NCBI GenBank assembly: GCA_977020255.1
Contig: CDROCS010000868.1
Span: forward strand, 930,001-994,000
Direction of reading: 5' to 3'
DNA: 64,000 nt
Source: Obrimoposthia wandeli
Taxonomy: Eukaryota
Each line of letters opens with the position of its first letter. The first letter of the stretch is position 1. Below the pieces are notes generated by a model that searched no databases, was not told where the DNA came from, and saw only the letters and a list, made by a program, of their open reading frames with translations. Made by a program: the position numbers and the translations under genes. Below, in pieces: positions 23,657 through 51,865 of this stretch.

Positions 23657-23941
23657 TTATAGGCATTTTATTAATATATACACTGAAAACAATTTAAAAA
23701 TTGATACAGAAAATGTTATATACATCATGTTTGAACGATTTATCTGAATGAAATTTTCAAAATCCTTTTTCCATTTGATATCTCTATAGACATAAGTGTG
23801 AACAATTTTCTTTATATTATCACGAGAAAGTCCATTAAAACTAGAAAAGTACTGAACTCCATTTATTGTTCCGTTCATAATTTCATCAACAACATCATCA
23901 ACTAATTTATCGTTTATATTCATTTTTGGATAAATCACCAA
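23657..23941 (-). CDS. Accessory ORF of unknown function in the Polinton
   Basis: 94-aa ORF co-oriented with flanking Polinton genes; no motif recognised. Confidence 0.35.
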   Translation of the reverse strand: MVIYPKMNINDKLVDDVVDEIMNGTINGVQYFSSFNGLSRDNIKKIVHTYVYRDIKWKKDFENFIQINRSNMMYITFSVSIFKLFSVYILIKCL

Positions 23942-23944
23942 ATT

Positions 23945-24760
23945 TCAATTGTTTATACTATGAAATTTTACATTTCTTACTCGTCTTTCAATTATATGTC
24001 AACATAATGGACATGGTAGAAATACTACTTCAATATTCAACTCAGGTTCTTTGAAAATGTATGAAAGTATATTTATATAATGTTTTTCAGGGTTTAATTC
24101 TAAATTAGATAAATCACAAATCATTTCAAATAGTGATTTGTAATCTCCATATCGCATTATTTTATATTTTAAAACAGATTTTATTCTGTATTTTTTGTGA
24201 AAAACCTTTTCAAATTTCTGATTTGGTTGGTATCTATCAACATTTTGAATTTTTCTGTAGTTATAGGATATTCAATTATACAATCTGTTTGGATTTTCTC
24301 AATAACATTACCATCATTATAGGGTCCTAAACTTTTTGAATAACATATATCAGGTAATTTTACAACAATATCTGATACATATACTTTTCCAATCAATGGT
24401 GATGTATCAAAATCAATTTTCTTATTACTAGTTTTAATTATTGGTACATTTGAAACATTCAATTTTAAAAGAAATGTACATGTAAGAAAAAATTTCATAT
24501 GTTACTTTATTGGTTTAAGATACCATTCCACTTCGGATATTGCACCTTGACAGTATATACATTTTACTTTATCGGTTGAATCATCAGCATGTTTATCCGG
24601 CTTTAGCTAAATCATATGTAGATTGTTTTCCTTTAAAATTTATAAATAACGACTTCAATCTTTCACTTTCACGTCAATACTTCACTTGTAAAACTTTCCT
24701 TTTAGATTAATCTACTTTTCGTCTAACTAAAACATCATGAAGTATATAATCAACAAGCAT
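23945..24760 (-). pseudogene. IAP-like (BIR + RING) gene remnant
   Basis: ESERLKSLF..YDLAKAG / DKVKCIYCQGAISE..PIK*HMKFFLTCTFLLKLNVSNVP gives a BIR with C,C,H,C ligands, in frame with ORF 24181-24498; near 24030-23970 VVFLPC-PLC*HIIERRV resembles an internally deleted IAP RING. Confidence 0.78.
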
Positions 24761-24762
24761 TT

Positions 24763-25040
24763 TTAAAAATCAAATACATATATTTGTTCATAAGAAACTT
24801 TCAAGAAAAAAACAATAGACTTGACTTGACAATGATAATTAAAATCTTTAATACCATGAATAATCACTTTTCCACTAGCAAACACATTAACACATAGAGG
24901 ATAAAACTTTAAAATTCTGAGTGCTGTAAACAATTCTGGTTCAAACATACAATTTCTTCCCATTTTCAAAGATATCTTAAACAAATTAACCTTCTTGTTG
25001 ATATTTGCTCTTCGCACCAACCTTAAAGAAGAAATTGTTC
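24763..25040 (-). CDS. TATA-binding-protein (TBP)-like ORF, single repeat
   Basis: ANINKKVNLFKIS..NCMFEPELFTALRILKFYPLCVNVFASGKVIIHGIK matches the TBP repeat consensus ..IDL..LA....YEPE.FPGL.YR...P....LIF.SGKVVITGAK. Confidence 0.72.
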
Positions 25041-26094
25041 AATATCATTACAATCAAAGTATCACATGATCACATAAATAAATGATTTATTGAAATTACT
25101 TATTATTTGAATTTTTTAAGGTTAAAGGTTTACAATAAACAAAATAATCTAAATATACAATCTTTGCCAAAGGTGCTGCCCGGTCTTCGGATAAAGGGCT
25201 CCTTTCTTAGGAGGCTCCGCAAGAGAGACTTTGGTCACTTAAAATAATTTACTAAATATATAGCGCGATATTTGAAATGGTCTTGAAATCGTGCATACTA
25301 CGTCAAAATAGTTTTGCAGCAAAGGGTACTTCCCACGGGAGGAGGGCATTGCTTTGAGTTATTATGTGTGATTTTCAGACCAAAATTAGGTCAAGTCTTG
25401 AAATCCTGCATACAGCGTCAAATTGGTTTTGCAGTAAAAGGTACCCCCCGGGGACCTATTGTCTTGAGTTAGTATGCGCGATTTTGAGACTTGATGTGTA
25501 ATTTTAAGCAATATTAAGCAATTTGAACGACATTCTGTCTAAAAATGACTATATTTAGACTTTTTAGGCACTAAAGTATTGATACTAACTCAAAGGAACA
25601 GCCCCCAGAGGGGCTTTGATCCTTTGAGTTAGTACTGAAACTATATACTACTTATTTAATTTATTTGAATTTACCCATTTGAATTTAAAATCACAATAAA
25701 TGTAAATATCAGATGGGAAATGGTTTTTCATGCGATAATATAAACAAATTCATTTTTTTACCATAAAATGAGCATATAAAATCATTTGGTGCTTCGTCTA
25801 TATATAGTATATATATATATATATGTAGCAGTGATTCTTAAATTTTTTGTCGGCTGCACTCTTGTAAGTTTAAAAATATTTCATCGCTGTCTCCTAAAAC
25901 TATAAATATATAATTGCAAAAATATATGGCTCCTGAAATGTGATCAATTTACTATTCTCAAGTTAGTAAACAACTATCAATCATATTCTGAAAAAAACAG
26001 AGAACTTGAATTGCGGTGTAGCATGATTTGTAAACAAATGGTGTGATAATTTAGTTCGAAACAATTATTCGTTTGAGAGATTCCAATGACACAC

Positions 26095-28700: not shown

Positions 28701-30949
28701 TGAAGTACAAGGTAGCAAAGCTAATTTAATAAAGTTCTTTCCACGTCCTTGAGGTTCTCTGACGTTTACTTTTAGTTTTCTTGTAAGAATAAAGACTTTA
28801 TGACTTCAGACACTAAATAATTGGACTTTAAAGATTTATTCTGTGGTGCTTTCTATTTCTTGAATAAGTCATCTAATTTTGTTGCTTTCTTTAAATTTTA
28901 TTTCAAAGTCGTTTCTATTTTTAACAACAGACAATAGGTGTTTTATTGTTCTGATGAATGTCATTTATACCTTTTTATCAAATAGTTGGACATAATAAGA
29001 CCTCATTCGACACAAACTGACCTATTATTATACTGTTCATTAATGCATTCTAAAAACAAACAAAATACAACTTTGTATTGCATAATTCTTTTCTTTTTGC
29101 TAATGTATCACATTCTATCTTGCTAAAATATACAATTAAAAGGAATAAAAATATACTTACTACGTAGAAATTAAGTAGAAACAGAATAAAATAGAAATAA
29201 AGTTTTTTTAATTTTTTTAAAGATATATATAATTCAGACAAAACTTCCAAGGACATTAGATTAAAAAGTTTACATTTTGTATAATAAATTTTCAATTAAA
29301 CTCGTTAAAATTTGGAAACATATATATAATTGTGCATATATTCTTTCTCTATATAAATATAGCTGTGGATCACTCTGAAATCTCGGAAGAAAACACTTTG
29401 AGCATTACTGTTCAACACGATACAGTATCCTTCATTCTTGTGGTTTATTGGCGATTTATTGTTTTGGATTGTAATGTTCCTTTCCGTCTCCATGATCTAC
29501 TCTACACTACATTCCTTGTAGACTGATTCATTTACATTTATTGTCGTCAAAACCGATGCTAAATTCAAGCACACGATGAGTGTTAATTGAACTTGGCTAT
29601 TATACGATCTGGATAGAGTTAGAAATTAGTCGATTTTATGCCATCACTCTACACTAATTGATTCAATTCAGACTAACACGGTAATCTGAGAAAAACGATA
29701 AATCAATACAGTCATTATTATGAAAAATTAATGCTAGTGATATATTACAACGTGATTTATGAATAAAAGTTCTATGCTCCTAAAAGGTTGCTCGTCAATG
29801 GAAAATTTATGTTCTCGGACAGACTTCTAAGCAACTTTGTAATAGACTTCAACTTGTTCATCAACTATACTAAGATAAGATTTATCAATATAATGTCAGA
29901 AGCAAATTAGTGATTACACATAACTCAAATGAGCATCAAACTTTAAAAACAGGATTGCTGAAGTTGTGAATTTATTGTGTCTGGAATTTTTAGGTGACAC
30001 TGTCTTCAGCTTTATTTTGCAATTATCAGAATTATTCCTATTCTGTGTATATAATAACAAAGAGGTATTCAAATTTGCACAAGCATATTCAAAAATTCGG
30101 TCATTTTTCTTTTCAAAATTTTTGTTTTTCTATTTAATTTCGTATACTAAATATTAATGAAGCCGTAATGTTAAAGTGTAATACTATTTATAAAGTGAAT
30201 CTGTAAAATTAAAATAATTAACTCTATTCCTTCAAATTGGAGTATATCACTAGGGTGAGTACTAAAGAAAATACCTAATAAACACTTTTCCAAATCATTT
30301 TCATTTTTCTAAATATTATTAAACAACAAAAACCAGAAAAAATGATTTATGTACTGTAAATTTACCTAATATATTTTTAATATTGTTCTTAATATTACAT
30401 AATTTTTATTTTATAAATTGTTTTAATATTTCAAATAGTTATCAACTATATCAAAAGTTAATGTTTCTAAAAATCATTTTAATCTGAGAAATTATTCAGA
30501 TATAATTTAAGTACATTAGTTTTGGTAAGTCTAATATCAATAGCAAGAATCCCATCGACTTCTGTTGTATTAGATCGATATCATTATTTACAAAATAGAA
30601 AACGTGGAATCAGAAAATACAAAATGATTAATACGGTTGCCAATGAACTTTATGAACTATAGACGAAGTTAAATATAGGTTCATTAAAATTCGAATTTAT
30701 AGAAAAGAGATTCATATATACCAAAAATTAAGCAAAGAATCAAAACATAGTAATTTGTTTATGGAAGTTTTAAATATTCATGATTAAAATGTTAAAATAT
30801 TTAAAGAATCTGAAACATTTTAAAAAATATAAATCGATAATAAATCAAAAATTTGGTCGATTGTTTATATTGGAATAAAAACGAAATAAGAAACTATCAC
30901 AGAATTTTAGGTTAATTAAAGAAATAATTCATTTTTCAGATTAGTTAAA

Positions 30950-32170
30950 TAGAGATGGCACACATCATGATTATTTACCACCCGATAAACAAGTTGATAA
31001 GGAAAATGTACATCAACTTTCAAGCGTATAATTTCAACAGGTTTATCAACTCGTAAAGCTCTAACTTTATTAAAACAAGCTGAATTATCAACATCACCAG
31101 TTAGGGGTTTACGAAAAGCTGTTTATAGAAGTGGTAAAAATGAAGAAATTAACAATTACGATTGTTATTTATGTCTACAATTTGATGGTAAAATAATGAA
31201 TGTTTACGATGAAAATCACGTAGAAAGACTTGCTATATGTTTAACATTAAAATAATTTTCATAAATAATAGCATTTAAAACAGTACCGCACAGTATAAGC
31301 AAAACTACTTGTACATCTATGATGGAAGTCGTTACAAAATATAATATTTTATTCAAATTGAAGTTAATAATATGTATTACTACATCGACTAATACGGGTA
31401 ATTTAATTGGAGTGGAGACACAATTAAAAAGACTGAACTCTAACATTAGTTATGAAGGAAGTAGATTCCATGTTTTAGATCTAATTTTGAGACACGTTTA
31501 CAATAAGCTATTGTAAGTAAATTTTAAAGTCTTAATTTGAAGTACATTTTTATTGTTAGATTAAGAAAACATTTTCAAAGCTTACTAAATAACTATAAAG
31601 GTGATAGATCTGTTTTTAAGATCCAACTTGATGTTGTATGGAGAAATGATTTTAAAGAGATGTGGAATTTAAGTAATGCGTATGCATATTACAGGAGATT
31701 CAATAAGAAATTATATTATTTTATTTTGCAAATCTGGTAATATATCAAATGCTCGCTGGAATACAAAGGCCTAAAAAGACCTAAAAAAAGCCCCTAAAAA
31801 CTCTAAAATAATAGACAAAAAAATAAAATAAAAAAATAAGTTTATAAAATAAAGTATTTCTTAATATCAAATGATAAAGACGGAGACCTAAGAATATTTT
31901 TTTGATTTTATTGTAGATTATTGGTGGGAATCACTATTTCATTTAGTCATAAAAATATTTTAATTGAGATAATTTAGAATCACAACTTGGACCACTACAT
32001 TACCAAAATACCCAAAAGGGTTTTATTGTTTACAACGCCATTTGACGAAGGACACCAACTGTTTAGACATTGCTTACAGAAATGAGATATTTGAGCGGGC
32101 ATTAGCTCAGATACAACTTTTAGTACCGAGATGCCAATATAATGACAATTTAGAATTGCGTGGTAAGACA
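30950..32170 (+). pseudogene. Decayed hATm-like transposase remnant
   Basis: LQFDGKIM..HVERLAI, TSTNTGNLIGVETQL..RFHVLDLILRHV, NARWNTKA motifs. Confidence 0.6.
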
Positions 32171-34859
32171 GTTTTCAATCATGAGGCGATCTAATATTTA
32201 ATACATAATTTATGGACTTTGATCTATTTTTGTATTTCAATTCGCAGTACTTATAATGTTCACATTTGATTTTTTTTCAGTTTTATAAAAAGAATAAAAA
32301 ATAGAATATTGATAATTGTTTTCGAAAATTTAACTTTTTGTTAAAATAGTGTACCCTAGTATTCACACCTTAGATTTTGTTATCTTTGAATGATTTTTAA
32401 TAGTTTCAATTTAATTATTTTGACATCTCAAATATTATAATTAAAATTACATTAACGAAGGGAAAATGCTTAAGTAGATTTTCTGTTTAACATGATTTGG
32501 TCGACATATTTAAAATAACATTCTGACATAATGCAGACAAGTATATACAAGTCCTAGAAAATATATCCCTGAGACTGGCTATGTACGAATGAGATCATGT
32601 TATCGAAGTTATTTAACAAAATATTTTAAAACACTAATGAGTTTAAGAACAATTGAATGACTAGCGTATTTGCCAGATGTCAATTATATTGAAAAGGTTT
32701 GGTAAGATCTTAAATAAACCAATCGAAAAAAATATGACATTTTCGATGATTTAAAAATGCTTAGAGAAGGAAAATCCACACTAAACTATTGATCATATAA
32801 AGATTATATTTAATGATTATATATATCCTTGACTGCAAGATTGCAAAAATGTTTCAATTTATTATGTCCTATTATTATTATTATTATTGGGGTTTTCTTT
32901 CAAACTCTAGAATCTTCGTATGGAGGCCCCCAACGTCAGTTCTGTAGCGATAGAGCTTACACATGGATGTGACCTACCTAAGAAGAATTATTGCGGACAG
33001 GTCGAAATTCGCAAGAGTGAAATAGAGAGACAGAAAGTCACCAATCTTGGGTAATTTGTATCACCGACTACACAGCGTCCATGACAATTCCATAACAGGA
33101 AGTCATCGCCAATTACCGGACTCGCAATACTGATTAAGTAAGTATTTAAGGCGAGTGGTAGTTAATTTACTCGCACAATTTTAGATAGTTACAAGAATTG
33201 CAAGTGGAATTCGAATCGAAGCAGAAGATATACGGTGAGAGTAAGCCAGCCGACAAAAAGCAACAATCTACATAATCAGAAATGTTGAAGCAACTCCCAC
33301 AACGAGATAGGACGCTGGTGGATAACCAAAAATCAAGTGACAGAAGAACAACCACCTACAGAATCAGAAGTGATTGAAGCAACTCCCACAAATAGATAGA
33401 ACGTGGACAAAATATCCAGGAGAAATCGTGAGAGACTCACTAACATAATAATTTGTATTTTCATAAAGTTTTGTAATCAGAAACCAAAAATATCATATTT
33501 GCAATATTGGTTTATAAAAACCTACAAAACCCTGTATAATATAGATTGTGTTGTGGAACCTAACTCTTTAATCATGTCTACGATAGAAAACATGACTCTT
33601 AAATTAATAATTAATTTGTATTTCATGAATTGATAACAATTCGTATTTCGTGAATTAATAATAATTCACCATTTCAGAACTTGTTAATAGAATAACCATA
33701 TTCACCTACATTAATGATTCATATTTCATAAATTGATAATCGAATAATTCATATTCGAGTAAACGAGTAAAAACGTATCGCTGTGGTTTTTTGTAAATTC
33801 TCCATTGAGAACTAGTATTTGTGTCCCCTGTAGATTCCCTAGTAGATAATTCATAATTGTTTTTAGCGTATAGTTTCCAGTAAAAACCAGACAACTATTG
33901 CTAGTAGTAGGTAGAAGGATGGAGTCTAGATCACTTGACCCCCCCCCTAAAGGGTGTCATACCATAAGGATGTCACACCATAAAGGTGTCTTGCCACACC
34001 ATAAGGGTATATGTTGCCTCACCTCCGGTGACCCAACATATACCCTTATGGTATGGCAACACACCCTTATGGTATGACACCCTTTAGGAGGAGGCGGGAG
34101 GGGAGGGGGAGGGGTAGCGGGGAGGGGTCAAGTGATCTAGACTCCATCCTTCTTTGATATACCACTATGGTCGTCCATAGTTTAAAGGGTCAAGTGGCTT
34201 AGTCTCCACCCTTCTTTTTGAGATATACCACTATGAAAGGGTCAATTGGCTTAGTCTCCACCCTTCTTTTTGAGATATACCACTATGAAAGGATCAAGTG
34301 GCTTAGTCTCCACCCTTCTTTTTTGTGATCTCGTCCATAATGAAAATTTAGGATAAAGTTCACACTTACCAATTAAGAATGTATGACGTAATCATACACA
34401 CACTATTTTATGTGAAATTTAAACTAAAGTTCACTCTTATAAGTTAATGAATGTATTACGTAATCACACACATACTATTTTATGTGAAATTTAGATCAAA
34501 GTTTTTCCTAGGCTTTCACATTTATAGAATTATGATAAAATTTCTTTAAATAACTTCAATTATATATTAAAATAAAAAAATAAAATAAGAAAGAAGTCAG
34601 AGAATAATACAAAATTAAACACATTTATTATGTAATTTCATAATATCATCTTCAAACTTAAGTGAATAACATTTACAAAGTAAGAAAGTCCATTCTTTAT
34701 ACATTCTTTTCGTTTCAACGACTAAGTTACAACGGAATTAATAGAAAATTAGTAAAAATATTAATTTATTTGAATATTTGAATGAGAGTTTGAATAAATG
34801 AGAGGTAGAATGAATGTAAATGAATAAAATTATGCATGCAAGTATGAATGTCATTTACA

Positions 34860-35480
34860 AGTAAGAGTCTTATCAAGTGAATGTAATTTTAAAAATAAGA
34901 GTGTCGATAGTTTGATTGAATGCAAGTGTAATTTAGACTATAAGTAAATTAAAATAGAGTTTTTGTTGAATAAATTATAGTTAGATTGAATGCAAGTATG
35001 ACGAGCAAGTGATTGATAGTATGAATTTCAATACAAGTAAGTGGGTTTAGCAAGTGAATGTAATTTTAAAAATAAGAGTGTCGATAGTTTGATTGAATGC
35101 AAGTGTAATTTAGACTATAAGTAAATTAAAATAGAGTTTTCGTTGAATAAATTATAGTTAGATTGAATGCAAGTGAATGATAGTATGAATTTCAATACAA
35201 GTATGTGTCTTAGCAAGTGAATGTAATTTATAAAATAAGAGTGTCGAGAGTTTGATTGAATGCAAGTGTAATTTAGACTATAAGTAATTTAAAATAGAGT
35301 TTTCGTTGAATAAATTATAGTTAGATTGAATGTAAATGAATACAAGTATACATTCAAGTGAATTCAAATACGAGTAAGAGTTTCAGCAAGTAAATATAAA
35401 ACTATGAATGAGTGACAGTGAAAATAAGAGTGTCGATAGTTTGATTGAATGAGAGTGTAATTTAGACTAGAAATAAATTA
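34860..35480 (+). repeat. Tandem repeats of about 160-180 bp in the left arm
   Basis: Unit caagtgaatgtaattttaaaaataagagtgtcgatagtttgattgaatgcaagtgtaatttagac... recurring at about 34875, 35051 and 35213. Confidence 0.85.
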
Positions 35481-36269
35481 AAATAGAGTTTTAGTATGAA
35501 TAAAGTTATGTTAAGTTACAATTAGATTAATAACAAGTAAGCAACTATAGGAATCAGTGATATTGAAGTATGTTAAAAATTAGAACGACTAAGTTATGGC
35601 AAGATTAATAGAAAACAACACCAAATTTGATAGTATGAATGAAAATTAGTAAAATATTAATGTATTTGAATGTATTTGAAAGATAGTTTGAATAAATTAC
35701 AGTTAGATTGAATGCAAATGAATGCAAGTATGATTGAATGCAGGGTCAAGTACAAGTAAGAAAGAATACGCAAGAATTGGCAAGTACGAATGCCAATTAT
35801 GAATGAAAATTAGTAAATATATTAATGAATTTGAATAATTAAAATGTCTTTACAAATTTAGTAAATTAACTCAACAACAATTTTTTTTGTTTAATTACTT
35901 GATATTTTTTGCCATTGTCCGTTTAATATAATATGAATATTCAATTTATTTCTTCAAAAATTCATTTTATATGTTAAATAATATTCTTTATCACATTATT
36001 GTGGTTTTTATCAAGTGATTTTAACCTTAAACTATAAAAATATTTTAATTATAAAGTTAGTAGCTGTATATGAATATTCAATTTATTTCTTCAAAAATTC
36101 ATTTTATATGTTAAATAATATTCTTTATCACATTATTGTGGTTTTTATCAAGTGATTTTAACCTTAAACTATAAAAATATTTTAATTATAAAGTTAGTAG
36201 CTGTACCCCGCCCACTGCATATAACATAAATTTCAAATATAAAGTACTATTAAGTTTATTATTTCGAAT

Positions 36270-38480
36270 AGTAAATGTTTTTTCGAGTTATTTAATTTTG
36301 TTTACTAATTTATTTATTTGTTGTTGTATATATTTAGTTTAAAATGTTGTAAGTTATTACTTTAATATAATTTTCAACAAAAACTTCAAGTAGTTTACTT
36401 ATTAAACATAAGTTTAATGTTTTGTACAATAAATTGACTTGTAAACATAATTTATTTTGATATATTTTCAATTTAATATGTTGTAAGTTATTACTTTAAT
36501 ATAATTTACAACAAAAACTTCAAGTAATTTACTTATTAAACATAAGTTTAATGTTTTGTACAATAAATTGACTTGTAAACATAATTTATTTTGATATATT
36601 TTCAATTTAATATGTTGTAAGTTATTACTTTAATATAATTTACAACAAAAACTTCAAGTGGTTTACTTATTAAACATAAGTTTAATGTTTTGTACAATAA
36701 ATTGACTTGTAAACATAATTTATTTTGATATATTTTCAATTTAATATGTTGTAAGTTATTACTTTAATATAATTTACAACAAAAACTTCAAGTAATTTAC
36801 TTGTAAACTACAATATTTATTTGTTGTTGTATATATTCAGTTTAAAATGTTGTAAGTTATTACTTTAATATAATTTTCATTAAAAACTTCAAGTAATTTA
36901 CTTATTAAACATAATTTTAATGTTTTGTACAATAAATTGACTTGTAAACATAATTTATTTTGATATATTTTCAATTTAATATGTTGTAAGTTATTACTTT
37001 AATATAATTTACAACAAAAACTTCAATTTCTTGTAAACTATTTATTTGTTGTTGTATATATTCAGTTTAAAATGTTGTAAGTTAATACTTTAATATAATT
37101 TACAACCAAATCTTCAAGTAGTTTACTTATTAAACATAATTTTAATGATTTGATCAATAAATTGACTTGTAAACATAATATAATTTGCATATTTTCAATT
37201 TAATATATTGTAAGTTAATACTGTAATATTTCATTACATAAAAAGTAATTCATAGTTTACTGTCGTTTACAATAAATTGACTTGTAAACATAATATATTT
37301 ATGCATAACATAATATATTCACTTTAAAATGTTGTAAGTTATTACTTTAATATAATTTTCAACAAAAAAAAAACTTCAAGTAGTTTACTTATTAAACATA
37401 AGTTTAATGTTTTGTACAATAAATTGACTTGTAAACATAATTTTTTTTTTTTGGTATATTTTCAATTTAATATGTTGTAAGTTATTACTTTAATATAATT
37501 TTCAACAAAAAAAAACTTCAAGTAGTTTACTTATTAAACATAAGTTTAATGTTTTGTACAATAAATTGACTTGTAAACATAATTTTTTTTTTTTGGTATA
37601 TTTTCAATTTAATATGTTGTAAGTTATTACTTTAATATAATTTACAACAAAAAACTTCAAGTAATTTACTTGTAAACTACAATATTTATTTGTTGTTGTA
37701 TATATTCAGTTTAAAATGTTGTAAGTTATTACTTTAATATAATTTTCAACAAAAACTTCAAGTAGTTTACTTATTAAACATAATATTAATGATTTGATCA
37801 ATAAATTGACTTGTAAACATAATATAATTTGCATATTTTCAATTTAATATATTGTAAGTTATTACTATAATATTACATTACATAAAAAAGTAATTGATAG
37901 TTTACTATCGTTTACAATAAATTAACTTGTAAACATAATATATTTATGCATATATTCACTTTAATATGTTGTAAGTTATTACTTTATTATAATTTTCAAC
38001 AAAAACTTCAAGTAGTTTACTTATTAAACATAAGTTTAATGTTTTGTACAATAAATTGACTTGTAAACATAATTTTTTTTTTTGTTGGTATATTTTCAAT
38101 TTAATATGTTGTAAGTTATTACTTTAATATAATTTACAACAAAAACTTCAAGTAATTTACTTGTAAACTATAATATTTATTTGTTGTTGTATATATTCAG
38201 TTTAAAATGTTGTAAGTTAATACTTTAATATAATTTACAACCAAATCTTCAAGTAATTTACTTATTAATCATAATTTTAATGATTTGATCAATAAATTGA
38301 CTTGTAAACATAATATAATTTGCATATTTTCAATTTAATATATTGTAAGTTAATACTGTAATATTTCATTACATAAAAAGTAATTCATAGTTTACTGTCG
38401 TTTACTATAAATTTACTTGTAAACATAATATATTTATGCATTTATTCACTTTAATACGTTTTAAGTTATTAGAATTTGTG
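36270..38480 (+). repeat. Central AT-rich satellite array (about 134-bp unit with 90-100-bp variants)
   Basis: ttgtaagtt anchor at 36347, 36481, 36615, 36749, 36850, 36984, 37075 and onward. Confidence 0.92.
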
Positions 38481-39329
38481 TTCTTGTATTCAATGATTAA
38501 CTTTTATTAAACTATTATATAACATTGAAATGTTTAAAATACTTGAGCAAAATAAATTAATATAATAAAAGGATATTAAAATGTATTTTAGTTTAAGATA
38601 AAAAAATGAGGTTATACGAAGTTAATCTAGTTTAAAAACAATTAATACCAAAATTACTTACCAGAATGTCGAAATAATAAACTTAATAGTACTTTATATT
38701 TGAAATTTATGTTATATGCAGTGGGCGGGGTACAGCTACTAACTTTATAATTAAAATATTTTTATAGTTTAAGGTTAAAATCACTTGATAAAAACCACAA
38801 TAATGTGATAAAGAATATTATTTAACATATAAAATGAATTTTTGAAGAAATAAATTGAATATTCATATTATATTAAACGGACAATGGCAAAAATATCAAG
38901 TAATTAAACAAAAAAAAATTGTTGTTGAGTTAATTTACTAAATTTGTAAAGACATTTTAATTATTCAAATTCATTAATATATTTACTAATTTTCATTCAT
39001 AATTGGCATTCGTACTTGCCAATTCTTGCGTATTCTTTCTTACTTGTACTTGACCCTGCATTCAATCATACTTGCATCCATTTGCATTCAATTTAACTGT
39101 AATTTATTCAAACTATCTTTCAAATACATTCAAATACATTAATATTTTACTAATTTTCATTCATACTATCAAATTTGGTGTTGTTTTCTATTAATCTTGC
39201 CATAACTTAGTCGTTCTAATTTTTAACATACTTCAATATCACTGATTCCTATAGTTGCTTACTTGTTATTAATCTAACTGTAACTTAACATAACTTTATT
39301 CATACTAAAACTCTATTTTAATTTATTTC

Positions 39330-40140
39330 TAGTCTAAATTACACTCTCATTCAATCAAACTATCGACACTCTTATTTTCACTGTCACTCATTCATAGTTT
39401 TATATTTACTTGCTGAAACTCTTACTCGTATTTGAATTCACTTGAATGTATACTTGTATTCATTTACATTCAATCTAACTATAATTTATTCAACAAAAAC
39501 TCTATTTTAATTTACTTATAGTCTAAATTACACTTGCATTCAATCAAACTATCGACACTCTTATTTTTTTTTAAAATTACATTCACTTGCTAAACCCACT
39601 TACTTGTATTGAAATTCATACTATCAATCACTTGCTCGTCATACTTGCATTCAATCTAACTATAATTTATTCAACAAAAACTCTATTTTAATTTACTTAT
39701 AGTCTAAATTACACTTGCATTCAATCAAACTATCGACACTCTTATTTTTTAAAATTATATTCACTTGCTAAACCCACTTACTTGTATCGAAATTCATACT
39801 ATCATTCACTTGCTCGTCATACTTGCATTCAATCTAACTATAATTTATTCAACGAAAACTCTATTTTAAATTACACTTGCATTCAATCAAACTATCGACA
39901 CTCTTATTTTTAAAATTACATTCACTTGCTAAACCCACTTACTTGTATTGAAATTCATACTATCAATCACTTGCTCGTCATACTTGCATTCAATCTAACT
40001 ATAATTTATTCAACAAAAACTCTATTTTAATTTACTTATAGTCTAAATTACACTTGTATTCAATCAAACTATCGACACTCTTATTTTTAAAATTACATTC
40101 ACTTGCTAAGACTCTTACTTGTAAATGACATTCATACTTG
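39330..40140 (-). repeat. Mirror tandem repeats in the right arm (more copies than left)
   Basis: Reverse complement of the 34860-35480 unit; this tract is longer. Confidence 0.85.
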
Positions 40141-43100
40141 CATGCATAATTTTATTCATTTACATTCATTCTACCTCTCATTTATTCAAACTCTCATTCA
40201 AATATTCAAATAAATTAATATTTTTACTAATTTTCTATTAATTCCGTTGTAACTTAGTCGTTGAAACGAAAAGAATGTATAAAGAATGGACTTTCTTACT
40301 TTGTAAATGTTATTCACTTAAGTTTGAAGATGATATTATGAAATTACATAATAAATGTGTTTAATTTTGTATTATTCTCTGACTTCTTTCTTATTTTATT
40401 TTTTATTTTAATATATAATTGAAGTTATTTAAAGAAATTTTATCATAATTCTATAAATGTGAAAGCCTAGGAAAAACTTTGATCTAAATTTCACATAAAA
40501 TAGTATGTGTGTGATTACGTAATACATTCATTAACTTATAAGAGTGAACTTTAGTTTAAATTTCACATAAAATAGTGTGTGTATGATTACGTCATACATT
40601 CTTAATTGGTAAGTGTGAACTTTATCCTAAATTTTCATTATGGACTAGATCACAAAAAAGAAGGGTGGAGACTAAGCCACTTGATCCTTTCATAGTGGTA
40701 TATCTCAAAAAGAAGGGTGGAGACTAGATCACTAAAAGAAGGGTGGAGACTAAGCCAATTGATCCTTTCATAGTGGTATATCTCAAAAAGAAGGGTGGAG
40801 ACTAAGCCAATTGACCCTTTCACAGTGGTATATCTCAAAAAGAAGGGTGGAGACTAAGCCACTTGACCCTTTAATCTATGGACAACCATAGTGGTATATC
40901 AAAGAAGGATGGAGTCTAGATCACTTGACCCCTCCCCGCTACCCCTCCCCTCTCGCCTCCCGCCTCCTCCTAAAGGGTGTCATACCATAAGGGTGTCATA
41001 CCATAAGGGTGTGTTGCCATACCATAAGGGTATATGTTGGGTCACCGGAGGTGAGGCAACATATACCCTTATGGTGTGGCAAGACACCTTTATGGTGTGA
41101 CATCCTTATGGTATGACACCCTTTAGGGGGGGGTCAAGTGATCTAGACTCCATCCTTCTACCTACTACTAGCAATAGTTGTCTGGTTTTTACTGGAAACT
41201 ATACGCTAAAAACAATTATGAATTATCTACTAGGGAATCTACAGGGGACACAAATACTAGTTCTCAATGGAGAATTTACAAAAAACCACAGCGATACGTT
41301 TTTACTCGTTTACTCGAATATGAATTATTCGATTATCAATTTATGAAATATGAATCATTAATGTAGGTGAATATGGTTATTCTATTAACAAGTTCTGAAA
41401 TGGTGAATTATTATTAATTCACGAAATACGAATTGTTATCAATTCATGAAATACAAATTAATTATTAATTTAAGAGTCATGTTTTCTATCGTAGACATGA
41501 TTAAAGAGTTAGGTTCCACAACACAATCTATATTATACAGGGTTTTGTAGGTTTTTATAAACCAATATTGCAAATATGATATTTTTGGTTTCTGATTACA
41601 AAACTTTATGAAAATACAAATTATTATGTTAGTGAGTCTCTCACGATTTCTCCTGGATATTTTGTCCACGTTCTATCTATTTGTGGGAGTTGCTTCAATC
41701 ACTTCTGATTCTGTAGGTGGTTGTTCTTCTGTCACTTGATTTTTGGTTATCCACCAGCGTCCTATCTCGTTGTGGGAGTTGCTTCAACATTTCTGATTAT
41801 GTAGATTGTTGCTTTTTGTCGGCTGGCTTACTCTCACCGTATATCTTCTGCTTCGATTCGAATTCCACTTGCAATTCTTGTAACTATCTAAAATTGTGCG
41901 AGTAAATTAACTACCACTCGCCTTAAATACTTACTTAATCAGTATTGCGAGTCCGGTAATTGGCGATGACTTCCTGTTATGGAATTGTCATGGACGCTGT
42001 GTAGTCGGTGATACAAATTACCCAAGATTGGTGACTTTCTGTCTCTCTATTTCACTCTTGCGAATTTCGACCTGTCCGTAATAATTCTTCTTTTTTTCGG
42101 TCAGCCCTAACCATTTCATTTATCTTTCTCTTTTTTTCACTTTAGTCTTAATTCTTCTACGGCCTTTTTTTCACATTTCCCCTTACTTATTATCACATTA
42201 TCATGGCCTTTCAAAGTCTCAATTTATTCAGTTTTTTAAGCTTAAAAATATTTATTTTAACTTTAATATTTTAATGTTATTTTATGATTTTAACTTTATA
42301 ACCTTCACTGAGCAGGTTATTTATTTACTATAAATAATTATGTTATTTATTTAAAATTTACTAATACTAATACTATCACGATTACAAAATAAATACGTTT
42401 GTTACTTTGATTGTAAAACTATAATTTAGCTGACAGTTTCTTTATCCCCTACTATAAACTAAAATTGAAGAAAAAAGTATGTATAAATTCTCAGAAACTT
42501 TAAGTAACTTCATAATTTTATAAATCATTTATTAAATTAATTTTCAAATAAACTAAATTCAATCAAAGTCTGTAAACTAACAATTAAACATTGTTATTAA
42601 TTTAAGAACTTGAACTGGCATTGTACTTTATCACTACTATTCAAGGTTGCAATACAAAAATTGACAAAAAGATAAAAAGAAATATCTGAAAGGATATTTA
42701 GTTATATAAAATAAATCGTTTATAAATCTATTATTAAAATTATTTCGGTTGTGATAATAAAATAAATAAATAGTTACTTACATTTCTTAAACAACTTATT
42801 TTTAATATACCCATTATTCTAATTTATTGTTAGAAAATGTTCTTTTGCTTTAAGTAAAAGTTTAAATATTGTAAAATATGTCAGCCATATAGTTGATGTA
42901 CTTCTAACTGATTATAATTTTAAAATAAATATATTAATTATTGTATAAACTAAAAGCACTCTTGACATAATAACCACCTCTTATTTATAAAGTATCGAAA
43001 TATTTTGAAATATTCACCATGAATTAAAATACATTCAATGAATACAAATTTAAAGATTAGTGCAGATTTTGCTTAACAAAACTTTTATATTCGATAATTC

Positions 43101-43949
43101 TTGAAACTTTGAAGTGAACCATATCAATAATTAACTACAACAACAACAAAAATTTACTGACATAGAAGTTAATTTGAAACATTAATTAATTAATTAATTA
43201 AAATAAAAATATTCAGTCACAGTTTCAATGTTGACAGTGCTAATTGAGTGGCAAATAAATTGAACAGCTACTCATCACAAATAACTATGTCCATTGAAAT
43301 TGAATGAATTTTAAACAAATTCCCCTATGTGACAGGTCAAATTATTAAAGGAAATAAAAACACATTTTAAATAATTAAATTGTATGGCAATTTTCTATTA
43401 GAAAAAAACTATGTTTTGATTATTTTTGTTGTGTTTTTCATGGACGTATCTTTACACACTTTCGCTCAGTGTTTAATAGTCCTAAATCTTGTAGGAACTT
43501 AATTTTGGAATCTATATTTTGAGTTTTTTTAAATATATATTTTGTAAATATAAAAGATACCTTGCGGATTAAAAGCGCTAACGTCGAGCAAATTTAGTTT
43601 TTGATTTCTTTTCACATATTCTGAAAATTTTAATTAAAATATTTCATATAATTAATATGACAAGAAGATTTTTTTTATTCAGAGTGGTGACAAGAATATC
43701 GACTATACTGAATTCTCAACATTAGTAATTTACTGTATTTTTTTATTAAACAATCGATATTTTAATTGTTGAGAAAAATGCTACGCATTGTTTCTTTTGT
43801 AACTGCTGTGAAACTGGTTTCTCTCACCTCACTGCCATGAAAAGTAGGTTGCGCTGCCTATTAAATGTTAAGCTGTTGTCTATGCCTCATACTCAGTGAT
43901 ATTTAAACATGCATGATGAACAAATTTTGCATTCTTAAACAATCTAAAC

Positions 43950-44160
43950 ACTACCCAGGCATTAAGGGCGACATCCTGGATTTGTCATTTCCCCGTGTAT
44001 TAACTAATTTATTTGGAACTTCTTGATAAAAGAATTTTTATCAAAGCCTGTTTAGATTTTTTCAAATGCTGGACATCGTAGCTTATAACTGCTGTTTCCC
44101 CATCAAATTATTGTAATTATAGTATACCTTTTCCTATAACTGTTACGACCACCACCACTA
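43950..44160 (-). pseudogene. Possible piggyBac-like transposase fragment
   Basis: Only IQDVALNAWVVFRLF resembles the piggyBac D.A..NAW motif. Confidence 0.25.
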
Positions 44161-46460
44161 TTCATTTCCCTATGGGTATTAATGATTATTGCGATTTTCA
44201 TAATATAACCTGATAAAGCATGCTATTAATGTATTGATGATATATATTTTGTTTACAAGTCTTTCTTAGTGTATATTTTAATCATTTTAGAGTGATATTC
44301 AAGGACTAGGCAAGTAAAGTTATGAATTATTAAATAAATGGCTAATAATTATAATTGTCGACAAATTAAAGGGCAAATTAATTTTCAAAATTAAAAATGG
44401 AAATTAGAAAATTACTCAGAGAATTTAAACTACTTAATTACTGTTAAATAGTCAATTAACGTCAAGGGACCTAGGCTGACTATTATTCAGTTACCTGAAG
44501 TAATACGTCAGTTATGGATTTTAAAAGGAAGAAATTGTTGGGAGTCAGCTGACAACGATATTAGTCGGCAGTTAACGAAGCAGAGTAATAAATTCGTCAT
44601 TGGACAACGATGTAGAGCCAGTCAGAACTGATAGTGGAAATAAACGTACCAGTATATGAACGCATGCGACAGATAAATGACAGTTGCAACGGAAACTTAA
44701 TTTTGCATTGATTATACCATTGAAAGTGGAAACTGAATCTGCTTTGGTTGTTGAAATCCGTATGACCTATTTTGTATTTTGTAAACTAATATATATTTTT
44801 CATAAAAAATATTAATTTATTTTTGTTAAAAAAAGCCATCATATTAACTCACGGACCTGTAACGGTCCCAGCTTGTTAAGAGATTCTCTACTCTCTAACT
44901 GAGTAACTCTCAACCCGCGCTCAGCATTAGGTTTAGGACTGACAGTAGTGTAACATGGTTAAGTTCTTTCATATATGATTAGTTGTAAACTATGGCCACC
45001 CACACTACTAACTTGATCTTTTTTATTTTCAGAATTTGTTAATTTTCATAAGAACCCCGACTTATTCAAGGTAGAATAGCGCTCAAATAACAATCAAAAG
45101 TATGGTGCTGTGGTACTTTGAGCTGCAGCAACATTGTTGAGCAGTCACTTAAACAGACGGCCATATCTAACTTCAGATTTGCGAAAATTAGAGTAGACCC
45201 GACATATAAATATTTAAGAACTCACGAGCTACAGGCTTCCATAATAAGTGCAATAACATCAACCTAACAATACAAGAAGAACAAATACAAATTATAAAAC
45301 TGCTCACAAGCGAGCTTGTAAAATATTGCAGGTTCAGTAAGATATGAATTATTTACTCAAAAAATATATCTTGAGTTATTTAGTGTATTCTAAATTATTA
45401 TTTACTTTTAGATCATAATCTAACTTTTTTCTATTTTTATTGTTAATAGTTTATTGCTGAATCACAATAATTCAAATTCAAATTGACCAATGAGGACCGA
45501 GTTTTTGCAGCATAGAAATTATATTGATTAATCTATACATTAACATTATCTTTGAATATACTTATTCTATGTCTATGGTTAGTTAATAGTTTATATCTCG
45601 ATACTAGTAAAGACTCATCCTTCGTAGCACCTCTGAGTAGTATCACCTCTTACAAGTACGAATTTTTACTATTCCCATATTTAGGATCGAATAAGTTGTA
45701 TGTTGTAGCTTCGACAGAGTTTTACTTTAAATGAACCTTGTGTCACTCTGCCAAAATAAAGCAATAAGCACTTAATCGGTGTTGACAAATTTGTAAGTTA
45801 AGAAATGCCAATTTAATCATTTAGTTATTTTAAATAATTTCATTTCTTATTAAGAAAACAATTTTGCAAACAGCAGTTAAACTGAAGACTTTTACTTTAA
45901 TAAAAATTCACTAAATATATCTCACGCTGCCGCCTTCGAATTTTTAAAATCAAAATATCAACGGGATTGATACATTTTTAAGTATATATTTTTATATATT
46001 TTTTAAAAAAAATTCAAATTACTTTAAAGAAAATTGAATTCCAATTAGCTGTTGTACTTGATTACTGTCAATGCCTGTTGTATGAAAATATTATCTCACG
46101 ACAAAAAACATTACAAAATAGTTTTCGTTTAATTGATTTCATTTCCTTTTATATTTTTCAACAAATAATTGGAAAATGTTTCAACTAATTTAATACGACT
46201 ATATTTCGAATAAATATGAATGTCAAGTGAGCAATATTTGGTAAGCACAACTGATGATGTGAGATTAAATTATTTCAAAAATATTTTCAACCTCAGTATA
46301 AAACTAACTTTTCAAGTTTTTTAATAATTTTAATAATTAATTCATTACAAAGCTATTGCACCGGGCTTTACAGATGACGCAAAGTCAAATGAGATTTATA
46401 ATTTAAAAAATATATTTTAAGAAACTTGTGGATATTATTAGATTTGAAAAATCAGCTTAC

Positions 46461-46633: not shown

Positions 46634-49430
46634 CTGCAGTTGAGAATGACAGGGTAACATTGAGATATTTTCAGAAACTCAATTGGAAAGGGTAATTCAA
46701 CACGGTGAAGCTATCTAACCATAATCAATTTACTGTAAATACATTTTTCCTTTAATAACCAGGATAGTCATCCAATTTTGGAGTGTAATATGCTTCGAAA
46801 AAAATTAACAAGTGGTAATTGACAGAGTTAAAAAATTAAAATCACAAATAAGTTGTATAAAATTATTTATTAAAGGTTGAAAACCACACAATTAATGAGT
46901 CAATTGAGCTTCAGTTTATTGCACAATTTTTTGTTATTCTGGTTTATACTCTGTCGAACACAGTTTCAGGGAATTGCAAAAATGGGAATCAGATAATAAT
47001 GAACGATTTTTGGTCTTGATAGGATTTATAGAAGAAAAATCCGATTCACAAAAGTAAGTTGAGCCGAAACGCGAATGTGTTTTGACGTTCTTATGTTTTA
47101 CTTGAGATACATGCTTTCAGACATACACTTCGAGCCATTACTAAAATATCAGCTTTTAATGTTAAAATTTATATTCCAGTGAAATTATTTCACATCAAAT
47201 ACTTGGGATATGTTGCCATAAATATCATATTCGTTTAAATGTATTTTAAATGTAAACAATAATGAATCCGTTATTTTTATAATCTTCTTTAAATCAATAA
47301 ATCGAATATTTAACTCTTGCAAAACATCATCGACTCATTGTTACTTAGTCAGTTATAACTAATATCTACAAAATTTTAATTGTTACTTTACTAATTTTAT
47401 TATATATATATATAGCTTCTTTATAACGGTTTTTAGATACAGTATATCTTTTAAGAAGTTTTCCAGTTTTAAAATAATGACTACAAAGTACATAAGTCAA
47501 GCTTTAAACTTTGAAATGTAAAATAAATCATATGATATGCTGAGAGGATTTGGCTTAATTTCAAATACATATATTTCATCGTTTCAAATGAAGCCAGTGT
47601 GCTTTTGTAAATGATATTTAACGTTGGGAACGAGTAGCAAGTTTGTTGTTGAATAACAAATATCAATGAGGTTTGATTCTTAAAGGCGACGGGAGTGCTC
47701 ATCATTACAATGATAGTTATATCCTTCTCTTGTAATTCGAGATTCAATAGACTCAATTTACCAGTAAAATCGGCAAGAAAGCCAAGTCACTTAATTAATT
47801 GCTATATATATATATTTATTTATTTTTCATATTTCCTAATATGATAGTTAAAAATAGCTATGTTCGACATTTAAAAAATAAAAATAGAAACTTACTAATG
47901 ATAAGTAAGTCAGTAAAATTTCATTAAATATATCATAATTTTCAAAAATTACTGATTATTTCTTATTGTGGACGCAATTGACGTATTGGCCACCCCTACA
48001 CTACAACATGTGTTTAATTCCATGTAAAATTCTATAAATATAAAGAAAGCATTGTATGATGCAATTCTGATTATTTAAACTGAGCTGATAAAATAAATAT
48101 TCAATATAAATTTTGTCCACTTCTTTTATTTTTTTAATGTTTTTTTTAAATTTATTGACTGCATTTGCAAATATTTCTAAATGTTAATAATCACAATTAC
48201 CCTAATAATCGCAAAGACGATAAGTAGAATTAACACTATACAACAAGATCTAACTTTCGAACAACAGTAACATATTATGATAAATAATATTCAACTGCAT
48301 TCACAAGTTACATTTTAATCGCATACAAGAAACGCAGTGCAGAGTATCATTAGTCATAAATTAAATTAGATTTTCCGTAAATGCCTGATCATCCCGACAT
48401 TTAGTTGAAATATATCCGAAATTATCTATACTATCTACTTGAAACTTGGTATATTCAGCTATAACATCCATAACTAGTAACATTCCAAATTTAAACTACT
48501 TCGGATGTGTGAAAGCGTGCAGGGGTATTTCTAAAGATGTATTAAAGGGGGTTTCCAGATTTTGGTAATAATAACATGGATTATAGTTAGCAGTATTCAT
48601 TATGTATTGAAAAATTATTCATTATACCTATCATACAAAATTACTGTAGTTCATTGAACGAGCAGCTAACTGATCGATGACACCTACAACAAAGGATTGC
48701 AGGTTAGTTGTTGTTAGATTTGTACAACTAGCGATTGATGCAGACAATATGGGATAGTATACAGTAGGGTGGCTCGAAAACCAAAATTTTAGAAATTGTA
48801 TTCGCATGACTTGGGAAAAGGTGCCAATTGATGTAGAATTGAGGCTTGCAAAATTTCAGATTGATACGAATAGTCCTTCCGATCGCACAAGAGCCTTAAA
48901 ATATCAAAAAATGGAAAAAATCGTTTTTTTTATAAAATGCGAATTTCTAGTATCTTAATACAAAATATTGCCTGACATGATGTTCCATTGATGTCATTTG
49001 GTACTAAGCATCATATGTACGAAATTTGAAGGAAATCCGATAACGTTTAGCGTTCGCACAATGAAGTTATCGATATTTTTCACTCATTTTAACGCTAAAT
49101 TATTATTTTTTCATTATATTTGAATTTTTCGTATCTAAATGAGAAATTATTGAATGCGACGATGTTTAAATGATATTATATACTACTCACGAATATATGT
49201 ACCAAATTTGATTGAAATCGATTGATGATGACTCTAAATATTGATTTGGAACAATTTTTATTTGTAAAATTTAATTAATAATCTTTAAATACAGTAGCTC
49301 CCGTATCAAAATATCATTGTAGTGGTTCTGTTGATTAATTTCAGTTTATTGATTACTCCCGACGCCTTTATACCCGCGTACATACACACACGGGTGTCAC
49401 ATTGTTTAGCGTTCGCGGTAGCTACTGCTA

Positions 49431-51865
49431 GTGAATCATAGTTTGCAGCATCAGTGCTGTTGTGTCTCGTTCAACATGGCTGCGGCTAGTTCAACTCGCA
49501 ACTATGTTGTATTTCCCTTATTCGAACGTGTATACGACTTGAAAGATAACCAATTACCTACTTATGAAGATGTTCTTAGATGTATTCTGTTCAAAAAGAG
49601 ACAAATGCAAATGAACTCAGGTGGCCAACAACCGTCATTATCAATTATTTGCAAAGATGTGACTTGTGAAATAATGAAAATATATTCGAGTGCTTCTATT
49701 CCTGCATTGAGGGAACCACGAATCATCAGTCTATTGAAAAGCTATCATGCGGAATATGCAAATCTGATTAAACCTTATAAAACTCGTTGCAATACGGATA
49801 GTTACAAGGCTAAAACGGATGCATTTCTAGATCGTTCAAAAAAATTGTTTGATTTTTCAAGATGCAAATGTTTCAAACGTTTCAATCCTGTGGTTGCTCT
49901 AAAGATAACAAAGTTCCCCAAATTGAACAATCATTTGTGCTGGATCAAAGGAGTGCCCGTAAAATGTATATTGGATCGAAGGATGTAAAACAATCTACTC
50001 AACTACAAAAACGAGAAGAAAGAAAAAGACGTCGCGCTGAAGTTTCATTGCCGTCAACTAGTGCAGCTGCAGATTACGTCGAGCTGTCAGAGACTGATGG
50101 AACTCAAACTGATGAAAGCTCAGCTATTACTGATGAGGCTGAGTTTCAGGAGTTTATGCCATCTAAGACGACCATGAAAAGAATATGTTTAGACCCAAAC
50201 CAATCCAAAAATGACCAACAGAACGAGAGTATAATTTCCAAGCGCAAGTCTCTCCCATATTTTTCGGAAGCCTGTGACAGAGTTGGGGTGTCAGATCGTG
50301 CCGCAGCTCTACTATCAACCTCATTACTAGAAGATATTGGTGCGGTGAAAAGGAATTGCCCCGATAACATTATTGACAGGTATGCGTGTAAATTATTTTA
50401 GAGTGTTTGACTAATGACTATATAATATATTATAAATACTTAATATTAAATAGTAGGATTCTTCCCAACAATAAATCAATTTAATTTTAACAGGCATAAG
50501 ATTCACCGAGGAAGGGTACAGCGACGAACAGATCAAGCTAAGATTAGGATTATTTCGCATGTAACCAGCATATATTTCGATGGAAAACGAGATGTTACTC
50601 TTATTAATGATAAAGATGGAGACAAATATTACAGAAAGAAAATAACTGAAGAACATATTGTTCTTGTAACTGAACCTGAATCAAAATATTTGGGCCACTT
50701 TACACCAGCTACTGGAAGTTCTCTCAGTATTCATAATGGAATACTCCGTTTTTTGGAGGAGAAGAGTCTACCAAGGACCTCGTTGGTTGCCATCGGGTGC
50801 GATGGAACCAATGTTAATACAGGGACCAATAATGGAGTCATCAAAAGACTTGAAGACACATTAACATTTTCAGTTCATTGGTTCATTAGCAGGCTGCATG
50901 GCAATGAATTTCCATTACGGCGGCTTTTTACTGTCCTTGATGGTAAAACTTCAGGGCCGAAATGTTTCACTGGGCCGATAGGGAAGCAGCTACCAGCTTG
51001 TGAATGTAGAAAAGCTGTTGCATTTACAGCTATTACAGGTCCTCCCTTGCAGCTTATAGACAAAAGTGATCTCAGCACTGACCAAAAGTATTTGTATGAG
51101 ATGCATGCCGCTATTTCGAGTGGATTACTGCCAGATGATCTGGCTAAACGTACACCAGGTAGTTTGAATCATGCAAGATGGGTCACAACTGCCAACAGAA
51201 TCCTAAGATTATATGTAAGTGTTGAGTTTCCATCGGAAACGTTGATGAAGCTGGTTAGATTGGTCATGACGGTCTACATCCCTATGTGGTTTCAAATAAA
51301 AGCCAATCCTTTTGTTCACAGTGGTGCTATCCACGTTTTCCAAACAGCGAAATTAATGAAGTAACAGGCCAATGATGTGCAAGAGGCAGTATTACCAGTA
51401 TTGCAACGCAACGCATATTTCGCTCATCCAGAGAATGTTCTGCTATCCATGATTTCGGACGAAAGGCCACAGATTCGCGAATTAGGATGGAGGAGAATTA
51501 AACGTTGCAGATCTGCAGGCTCGTCTCCATCAACAAGAACTTTTGTGATCCCTAAGTTAGTTAAAAACTGCATCGATTACACGGACATGATTAGATGACA
51601 AGATATCGACGTCACTGAACCTCCGATGACAAGAAACATAACAAACTGTGAATTGGATACAATCATCCAAAATAAAACGCCATTCCAGTTCTTAAAATAT
51701 CTGCTCCACACACAAGCAGTGGAACGGAATATCAAACTTGTCAGCTTTGCTTCGCTTAAAGTTTGCGGTCATGAATCAAGAGAAGGGTACATCCAAGCTC
51801 GTCTATGTTCACGTGAGCGCGTACCAACATTTGAATCAAAACAAGATTACGCCTCATTGAAATAA
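49431..51865 (+). pseudogene. hATm transposase with one intron (50380-50493), a frameshift and premature stops
   Basis: LPTYEDVLRC, KVPQIEQSFVLDQRSARKMYIG, IYFDGKRD, IGCDGTNVNTG, LHGNEFPLRRL..LDGKTSGP, HARWVTTANRILRLY, HTQAVERNIKLV; the GT-AG intron restores the frame; frameshift near 49870, stops at 51362 and 51596. Confidence 0.92.

Follow-up and report, generated by a model that had tools for sequence, protein, structure and literature searches.

The Locus and Its Parts

The sequence considered in this study is a stretch of 64,000 nucleotides (nt), hereafter the window, from Obrimoposthia wandeli, taken from contig CDROCS010000868.1 of GenBank assembly GCA_977020255.1 (positions 930,001 to 994,000, forward strand). 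Near the middle of the window lies an element with long terminal inverted repeats (TIRs), bounded by AGTAGT (33903-33908) on the left and ACTACT (41164-41169) on the right. Outside these ends stand two copies, inverted with respect to each other, of a 923-bp piece of DNA. I will refer to the whole as the 9.1-kb structure and to each half of it as an arm. Its parts, in window coordinates, are as follows.

32980 to 33902, plus strand: left copy of the 923-bp flank, its outer half about 40% GC, its inner half AT-rich
33903 to 36267, plus strand: left TIR, 2365 bp, beginning AGTAGTAGG
33913 to 34153, no strand: subterminal hairpin of the left TIR, 95 paired columns with 5 mismatches, -101.5 kcal/mol, z -16
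34184 to 34503, plus strand: 52-bp and 72-bp tandem repeats of the left TIR, where the right arm is 78 bp longer
34841 to 35513, plus strand: tandem array of units of about 177 bp in the left TIR, containing 11 of the 19 inter-arm substitutions
35931 to 36204, plus strand: perfect 137-bp tandem duplication, in the left arm only
36268 to 38668, no strand: asymmetric centre, 2401 bp, mostly satellite
38669 to 41169, minus strand: right TIR, 2501 bp, ending CCTACTACT
40903 to 41159, no strand: subterminal hairpin of the right TIR, 110 paired columns with 8 mismatches
41170 to 42092, minus strand: copy of the 923-bp flank on the right, inverted and standing where a target-site duplication (TSD) is expected
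42079 to 42110, no strand: right outer junction, with the mismatch at 42079, 13 matching bases and then unrelated pyrimidine-rich DNA

The left flank (32980-33902) and the reverse complement of the right flank (41170-42092) align gap-free and agree at 922 of the 923 positions (BLAST E=0), exactly as an earlier note on this DNA had described: an indel-free inverted copy with one mismatch near its outer edge. The mismatch, G at 32993 in the left copy and A at 42079 in the right, lies 14 bp from that edge. Inward, the gap-free match passes the AGTAGT end and reaches 33938 (959 bp), where it is first interrupted by a C9/G8 homopolymer, and the inverted arms altogether, as defined by self-BLAST and an exact repeat search, run from 32980 and 42092 inward to 36267 and 38669. 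A chance origin of the 923-bp inverted match is excluded. Among the matches listed, the piece, which has an 87-bp direct repeat inside its outer half, occurs only twice in the window, both times outside the AGTAGT and ACTACT ends. The note had called the structure a palindrome, a description that suits the mirrored arms and not the whole, since the asymmetric 2401-bp centre lies between them.

The TIRs themselves are less alike, and the claim that the inner arms differ in repeat copy number was correct. Between 33903-36267 and 38669-41169 there are 19 substitutions, over 2225 aligned columns, along with 12 indels, among them additions of 16, 78, 162 and 13 bp in the right TIR and of 137 bp in the left. 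The TIRs contain tandem repeats with units of 16, 52, 72 and about 177 bp. The central satellite (about 36282-38471) has roughly 17% GC and composite units of about 134 bp. At the inner ends of the arms (36264-36267 and 38669-38672) stands the self-complementary TCGA, and the centre is thus bounded by a 4-bp direct repeat.

Each TIR carries a hairpin of about 240 nt beginning about 10 nt inside the terminus, with z about -16 for both ends (40 shuffles); for the right hairpin (-117.9 kcal/mol), 0 of 100 shuffles were as stable (z -24). The only match to Rfam in 30000-45000 was a sub-threshold one on an end hairpin, to mir-3117 (27.8 bits as against a gathering threshold of 80), which I take to be due to chance.

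The end motif of Polinton/Maverick elements, 5'-(AGT)2 // (ACT)2-3', is present, as are long TIRs. No stop-free frame of at least 100 amino acids occurs in 33903-41169, and by that measure the protein-primed PolB, integrase, ATPase, protease and capsid genes of an autonomous Polinton are not found there. The name Polinton, as used in the earlier note, is an inference. I base the designation "Polinton-type" on the end motif together with the TSD of a relative, described below, and do not file the element as a Polinton member, since no coding parent with the same TIR was found in the window. It appears to work like a non-autonomous Polinton-type derivative.

A Relative in the Same Window

A second element of the same TIR family serves as a control for the 9.1-kb structure.

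469 to 3418, plus strand: diverged relative, including its TSD (element proper, 475 to 3412)

Its TIRs, of about 580 bp, have 42 mismatches in 546 columns, and it shares about 74-90% identity with the 9.1-kb element in blocks of at least 40 bp. At the placement that gives AGT at both ends, it has a 6-bp TSD, ATTATA (469-474 and 3413-3418; n=1); eight other placements of 5-7 bp fit as well, nine in all, because the site is TA-rich. Should its single-AGT end be the rule, the left terminus of the 9.1-kb element would be 33906 rather than 33903.

The flanks of the relative differ from the 923-bp piece, which is not found beside its ends. The possibility that the 923 bp are a constant part of a larger element's true TIR, raised beforehand as a refutation, could be checked at one relative in the window, and since this relative (n=1) has a 6-bp TSD and no 923-bp flank, the piece would not be a family-wide TIR. 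Most of the long arm of the 9.1-kb element is single-copy in the relative, where 28 bp from the deep arm adjoin the left TIR and satellite-like traces are present. Its end hairpins are weak (z -2.2 and -1.5), the corresponding stretch being unmirrored. There are other fold-back products in the family besides the mirrored flank: the near-perfect end hairpin of the 9.1-kb element and an internal palindrome in the relative (1577-2333), diverged to 30 mismatches in 244 paired columns.

Boundaries of the Mirrored Piece

The earlier note reported no TSD, and none is found at either the inner or the outer boundaries. Direct repeats of 2-10 bp are absent from the outer boundary and from the inner terminus, whether this is put at 33903 or at 33906, and direct repeats of 6-10 bp are absent across outer offsets of -15 to +5 and -5 to +24. 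When the flanks are compared as a 6-bp TSD, 2 of 6 positions match with the terminus at 33903 and 4 of 6 with it at 33906; what is found at the ends instead is the mirrored flanks.

The right outer junction (42079-42110) contains no TIR, end motif or TSD. All 13 matches in the window to the terminal 29-mer of the family (at most 6 mismatches) lie inside the two elements of this family, none of them near 32980 or 42092. Among the matches listed, there is no mirror of 31000-32979 to the right of 42092 and no displaced continuation of the symmetry farther out, 32890-32990 and 42085-42140 having been re-examined. No templated insert at the outer junction was found in the window.

A few small features near the outer edges may be recorded. 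TGACC forms a 5-bp inverted match 5-6 bp past the outer edges (32970-32974 and 42099-42103), slightly off register and probably due to chance. Just past the right junction, 42103-42123 matches a repeat in the TIR of the relative (2965-2984) in 19 of 21 columns, a score that no shuffle out of 500 and a single one of 319 genomic controls reached. It was one of four targets tried and may represent either chance or a family remnant. I also weighed a hAT-like end at 42110 and rejected it, as nowhere in the window is its 12-mer perfectly paired (at 2 mismatches there are 3 matches).

Proposed Repair Copying Past the Terminus

The order of parts, flank-TIR-centre-TIR-inverted flank-unrelated DNA, requires two junctions, one in the identical TIR ends and the other at the outer edge. 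The explanation I lean towards, holding it somewhat probable, is a one-off inverted duplication in which repair copying between the TIRs overran the terminus. The structure, the missing TSD, the hairpin and the lack of a TIR at the second junction are shown, while the break, the point of switching and the use of a host polymerase are inferred. Copying from the opposite arm past the terminus, as the earlier note proposed, offers the simplest route to this structure; the piece is absent beside the ends of the relative, and its far junction has neither TIR nor TSD.

The starting point would be a non-autonomous Polinton-type element already in possession of long TIRs. A break or a stalled fork at one end, plausibly at the subterminal hairpin of about 240 nt, would free a 3' end able to pair with the opposite TIR, either on the same molecule folded back or on the sister chromatid. 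The first junction, concealed by identical sequence, would fall within the outer 200 bp or so, the probable zone of switching being 33903-34101, mostly inside the left hairpin. Synthesis, presumably by host repair enzymes rather than by a polymerase of the element, would then proceed through the AGTAGT end and 923 bp of the opposite flank. Microhomology or end-joining would afterwards reattach it to DNA of the broken side, making the second junction, at the cost of the TSD and some of the original flank. The lone mismatch, 14 bp from the second junction, is where error-prone synthesis, or a microhomology of 13 bp hidden there, would be expected to put it; a uniformly placed site would fall so close to the edge about 1.5% of the time.

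The further idea that the element had captured its flank and been enlarged is not supported: the ends bearing AGTAGT lie undamaged within the structure, and those outside have neither TSD nor motif. With its recognisable ends buried and its outer ends so bare, there is no sign that the 9.1-kb unit ever moved.

Substitutions are absent from 32994-34101 and then number five in 34102-34332, the one at 34102 being the first in the TIR. Overall, the flank has 1 substitution in 923 positions and the TIR 19 in 2225 (Fisher p=0.013), although, by my reading of the alignments, shuffling of the 177-bp repeat units may account for 8 of the 19. Fifteen of the 19 can be polarised with the relative, 5 as derived on the left and 10 as derived on the right, bearing in mind that alignments inside the 177-bp array may pair paralogous units. 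Because changes are derived on both sides, the two TIRs are to be considered distinct and separately evolved, not one collapsed copy. The pattern leans toward a recent event beginning in the outer 200 bp or so of the TIR, and is compatible also with a single event that copied the whole arm. The earlier expectation that copying would homogenise the TIRs is borne out for the outer 200 bp or so at most.

Which of the two flanks is the original was judged previously from an abrupt switch to AT-rich DNA on the right side, taken to mean that the left flank was there first. The 90 bp to the left of 32980 have 47% GC and the following 90 bp, up to a (TAT)n run, 19%; to the right of 42092 the corresponding values are 34% and 19%. 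The contrast is weaker than described, and both sides drop to the same value in the second 90 bp. Also on the left is a weak Pfam match to DDE_3 (Tc1-type; about 32664-32753, E=0.094, 1 of 6 frames), and on the right, the first 90 bp share the direction of the arm's purine skew (0.79 vs 0.61). When composition is scored with Markov models, the order-0 model points to the right flank (90-150 bp), the order-1 model to the left (60 bp), and the order-2 model prefers neither. With these scores split and no homologue of the 923-bp piece found, the claim of an original left flank is not established. If the mismatch between the flanks (G left, A right) arose during synthesis, the right arm would be the new strand; 7 of 8 polarised transitions in the TIRs run from GC to AT. 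The right flank is only slightly favoured as the copy. The mismatch could instead be the start of a hidden 13-bp microhomology or a polishing error, and all 5 of the 1-kb test regions contained matches of 11-14 bp by chance.

Several points weigh against overrun of the terminus. The contrast in age between flank and TIRs is weak: without the 177-bp array, the comparison becomes 1/923 vs 8/1552 (p=0.17); when repeat-unit shuffling is discounted, it becomes 1/923 vs 11/2225 (p=0.20); and the tail of the binomial comes to 0.093 with 12 substitutions, as against 0.009 with all 20. It is thus not established that the copied flank postdates the TIRs (p 0.009-0.2). The evidence from composition on polarity is equivocal. 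A chimeric read or a misjoin would give the same final sequence, and the four near-perfect tandem duplications found within 64 kb (12515-13345, period 509; 35931-36204, 137; 51794-52348, 286; 55616-56406, 403) could reflect either genuine biology or a trait of the assembly.

Alternative Explanations

The uncertainty in relative age gives some room, though not much, to an explanation in which the template was switched once, at the inner boundary (36267/38669), and an entire arm of 3.3 kb was copied, the 923-bp flank included. The symmetry of the long TIR and that of the flank would then be of the same age, and the inner differences would have come later, through repeat instability. I consider this unlikely, while noting that outside the 177-bp array the density of substitutions does not significantly exceed that of the flank (the p of 0.17 given above) and that the TIRs of the relative amount to only about 580 bp, most of the long arm being single-copy there. 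There are also precedents, since inward extension of TIRs by such a route has been proposed for Galileo (PMC3573991) and Mu killer is described as an inverted duplication of one element end (10.1101/2020.01.07.897926). On the other hand, all 12 indels and 19 of the 20 substitutions lie inside the AGTAGT ends, and the relative, with its 28-bp piece of the deep arm and its satellite-like traces, suggests that long arms predate the 9.1-kb copy.

Long inverted repeats are known trouble spots in assembly, and the structure might be an artefact, in which an amplification or read chimera, or a misjoin through the identical terminal 200 bp or so, placed the left flank on the right end, after which the contig was connected, with no Ns, to the right flank proper. 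Identity between the flank copies is 99.9%, their one mismatch falls at the edge, the place where polishing is at its least dependable, and there are further local duplications in the window, 94.8-100% identical. An artefact would require two false junctions in sequence free of Ns (A, C, G and T only), and a simple fold-back read would not be expected to show an asymmetric centre and TIRs diverged on both arms. The diverged fold-back structures of the relative point, moreover, to the occurrence of such events in vivo within the family. I judge an artefact to be as improbable as copying of the whole arm.

Overrun of the terminus might be more than a one-off event, if the family recurrently rebuilds its ends by fold-back triggered by hairpins, on three nested scales: the 240-nt hairpin, the 2.4-kb TIR and the 923-bp flank. 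This extension strikes me as quite unlikely. Its boldest form would have panhandle replication of the element fill in captured host DNA, making mirrored flanks a regular product that replaces TSDs, and if that were true, mirrored flanks would be the footprint, within the genome, of an untested intermediate in Polinton replication.

There is very little reason to regard the 923 bp as what survives of a true TIR belonging to a larger, composite element that later lost its outer ends on one or both sides. The DNA is GC-richer for about 90 bp to the left of 32980, up to the (TAT)n run and the Tc1-like remnant, and so the left end of a larger element could be near 32890; against this, no mirror of 31000-32979 appears to the right of 42092 among the matches listed, no outer TSD exists and the relative lacks the piece. 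A composite element with a true TIR of 3.3 kb was rejected on the lack of TSD and TIR at the outer junctions.

Panhandle replication is a standing model for Polintons, and one may imagine capture driven by the element: imprecise excision along with 923 bp of host DNA, formation of a panhandle by the TIRs, filling in by a Polinton polymerase and re-insertion with no TSD. Such a route would yield exactly symmetric extended ends, and coding remnants of Polinton type are in the same window. I find it highly doubtful even so, as the outer ends lack TSD and end motif, host DNA at the ends would probably be a poor substrate for integrase and the outer flanks give no sign of having formed one target site. 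Finally, alternative transposition by integrase, with sister-chromatid or hybrid ends, is scarcely credible, for while sister-chromatid events of Ac/Ds give an inverted duplication of element plus flank, the route as described would be marked at its far breakpoint by an element end and a TSD (10.1101/2020.01.07.897926), neither of which is present here, where the outer junction has no TIR and the terminal 29-mer is confined to the two elements of the family.

The 923-bp Piece and Neighbouring Elements

Searches gave the 923-bp piece no identity. Its stop-masked frames found nothing in Pfam beyond one unrelated weak match (1 of 12 frames). Large protein libraries were queried with two of the three frames of the right-hand copy, one by word-indexed search (0 matches among 78 candidates) and the other by a full HMMER search (0 matches at E<=0.001). 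The frame with the fewest stops has 11 in 307 codons, a number matched by 31 of 500 shuffles. By eye, the outer half resembles, in its motifs, the end of a long terminal repeat (LTR) retrotransposon pol gene, a likeness that no search supported.

Besides the relative, the window contains three further elements.

19507 to 25652: degraded Polinton-type element, AGTAGT ends, TIRs of about 585 bp, TSD matching at 5 of 6 positions
48777 to 53741: unclassified element with inverted repeats of about 430 bp, 10 mismatches in 421 columns
56779 to 61901: second Polinton-type remnant, with an integrase open reading frame (ORF) at 57255-57704

The first of these is a coding remnant with short end hairpins (z -3 and -6) and a TIR different from that of the 9.1-kb element. 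Its integrase-like ORF (22333-22923) has 64% DNA identity to the ORF at 57255-57704, the relatives of which carry rve, many of them with a chromodomain as well (181 matches among 669 candidates). The ORFs at 20724-21281 and 21618-22265 look capsid-like, to judge from motifs only. In the second remnant, the ORF at 61575-61901 looks similar to a PolB motif and found no match in Pfam, NCBIfam or PDB. The unclassified element contains ORFs at 49422-51364 without a Pfam match and a weak zinc-finger match at 52579-53133. Lastly, a fragment of a DDE_1 transposase is at 9542-9844 (Pfam E=7.8e-09).

Comparison with Known Systems

The kind of repair accident proposed here is already known, and the 9.1-kb locus, as a single example, adds little to known mechanisms of repair. 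If reads confirm it, the locus would offer a small and clean case of long TIRs rearranging host DNA without transposition, in which a kilobase was duplicated in inverted orientation, the TSD was lost and some DNA was probably deleted. It would account for some of the Polinton copies that lack a TSD and might be a source of hairpin RNA against the flanking repeat. I know of no experimental demonstration of how Polinton ends are replicated, and since frequent mirrored flanks in a family with hairpin ends would bear on this matter, their discovery would be of far greater importance. Literature available in full text, which covers few subscription papers, contains no report that I could find of outward overrun at a Polinton; supplements could list such copies.

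Mavericks are defined by (AGT)2//(ACT)2 ends and 6-bp TSDs (PMC8097293), and the elements of this family resemble Mavericks/Polintons (PMC8097293, PMC6431247) in their end motif, long TIRs and, in the relative, 6-bp TSD. The 9.1-kb copy differs in that it lacks genes for polymerase, integrase and capsid as well as a TSD, and in that no coding parent with the same TIR was found in the window. Pannagram describes Polinton cargo and TIRs of about 2 kb. In Pack-TIRs (PMC8277862), capture takes place inside the TIRs.

Two systems share with the present case the involvement of element ends in local rearrangement. At eri-6/7 of C. elegans (10.1101/2024.01.15.575659), Polinton TIRs are the substrates of local structural change, but there inversions between several copies give direct repeats, whereas here a mirrored flank surrounds one copy. 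Mu killer and Ac killer (10.1101/2020.01.07.897926) are likewise inverted duplications of element ends, able to yield double-stranded RNA, but Ac killers are made by transposase and have 8-bp TSDs at the far breakpoint.

Galileo (PMC3573991) is similar in its long, internally repetitive TIRs, which are proposed to lengthen as tandem repeats expand and as repair copies sequence past the other TIR. It belongs, however, to the P superfamily, has 7-bp TSDs and extends inward into internal sequence rather than outward into host flank. The same paper mentions expansion of Polinton inverted repeats, without detail.

The mechanism itself has its nearest counterparts elsewhere. In the model of Goulding et al. 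(1996; via 10.1101/2021.06.21.449227) for expansion of the plastid inverted repeat, a break in one repeat leads to invasion of the other, and copy-repair passes the junction and adds single-copy DNA to the repeat, much as proposed here. That case concerns an organelle genome, and this one the TIR of a nuclear transposon, with an outward overrun that removes the TSD. For DUP-TRP/INV-DUP events at PLP1 (PMC4352052), the first junction is hidden in inverted repeats and the second is formed by microhomology of 1-4 bp or by end-joining, with point mutations near the junctions and, in one case, an inverted segment of 254 bp. The scheme of two junctions, the first within inverted repeats, is the same as that proposed for the 9.1-kb locus. 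In DUP-TRP/INV-DUP, however, the second junction returns upstream to produce a triplication, while here it would lead into unrelated DNA, producing a plain inverted duplication, probably along with a deletion.

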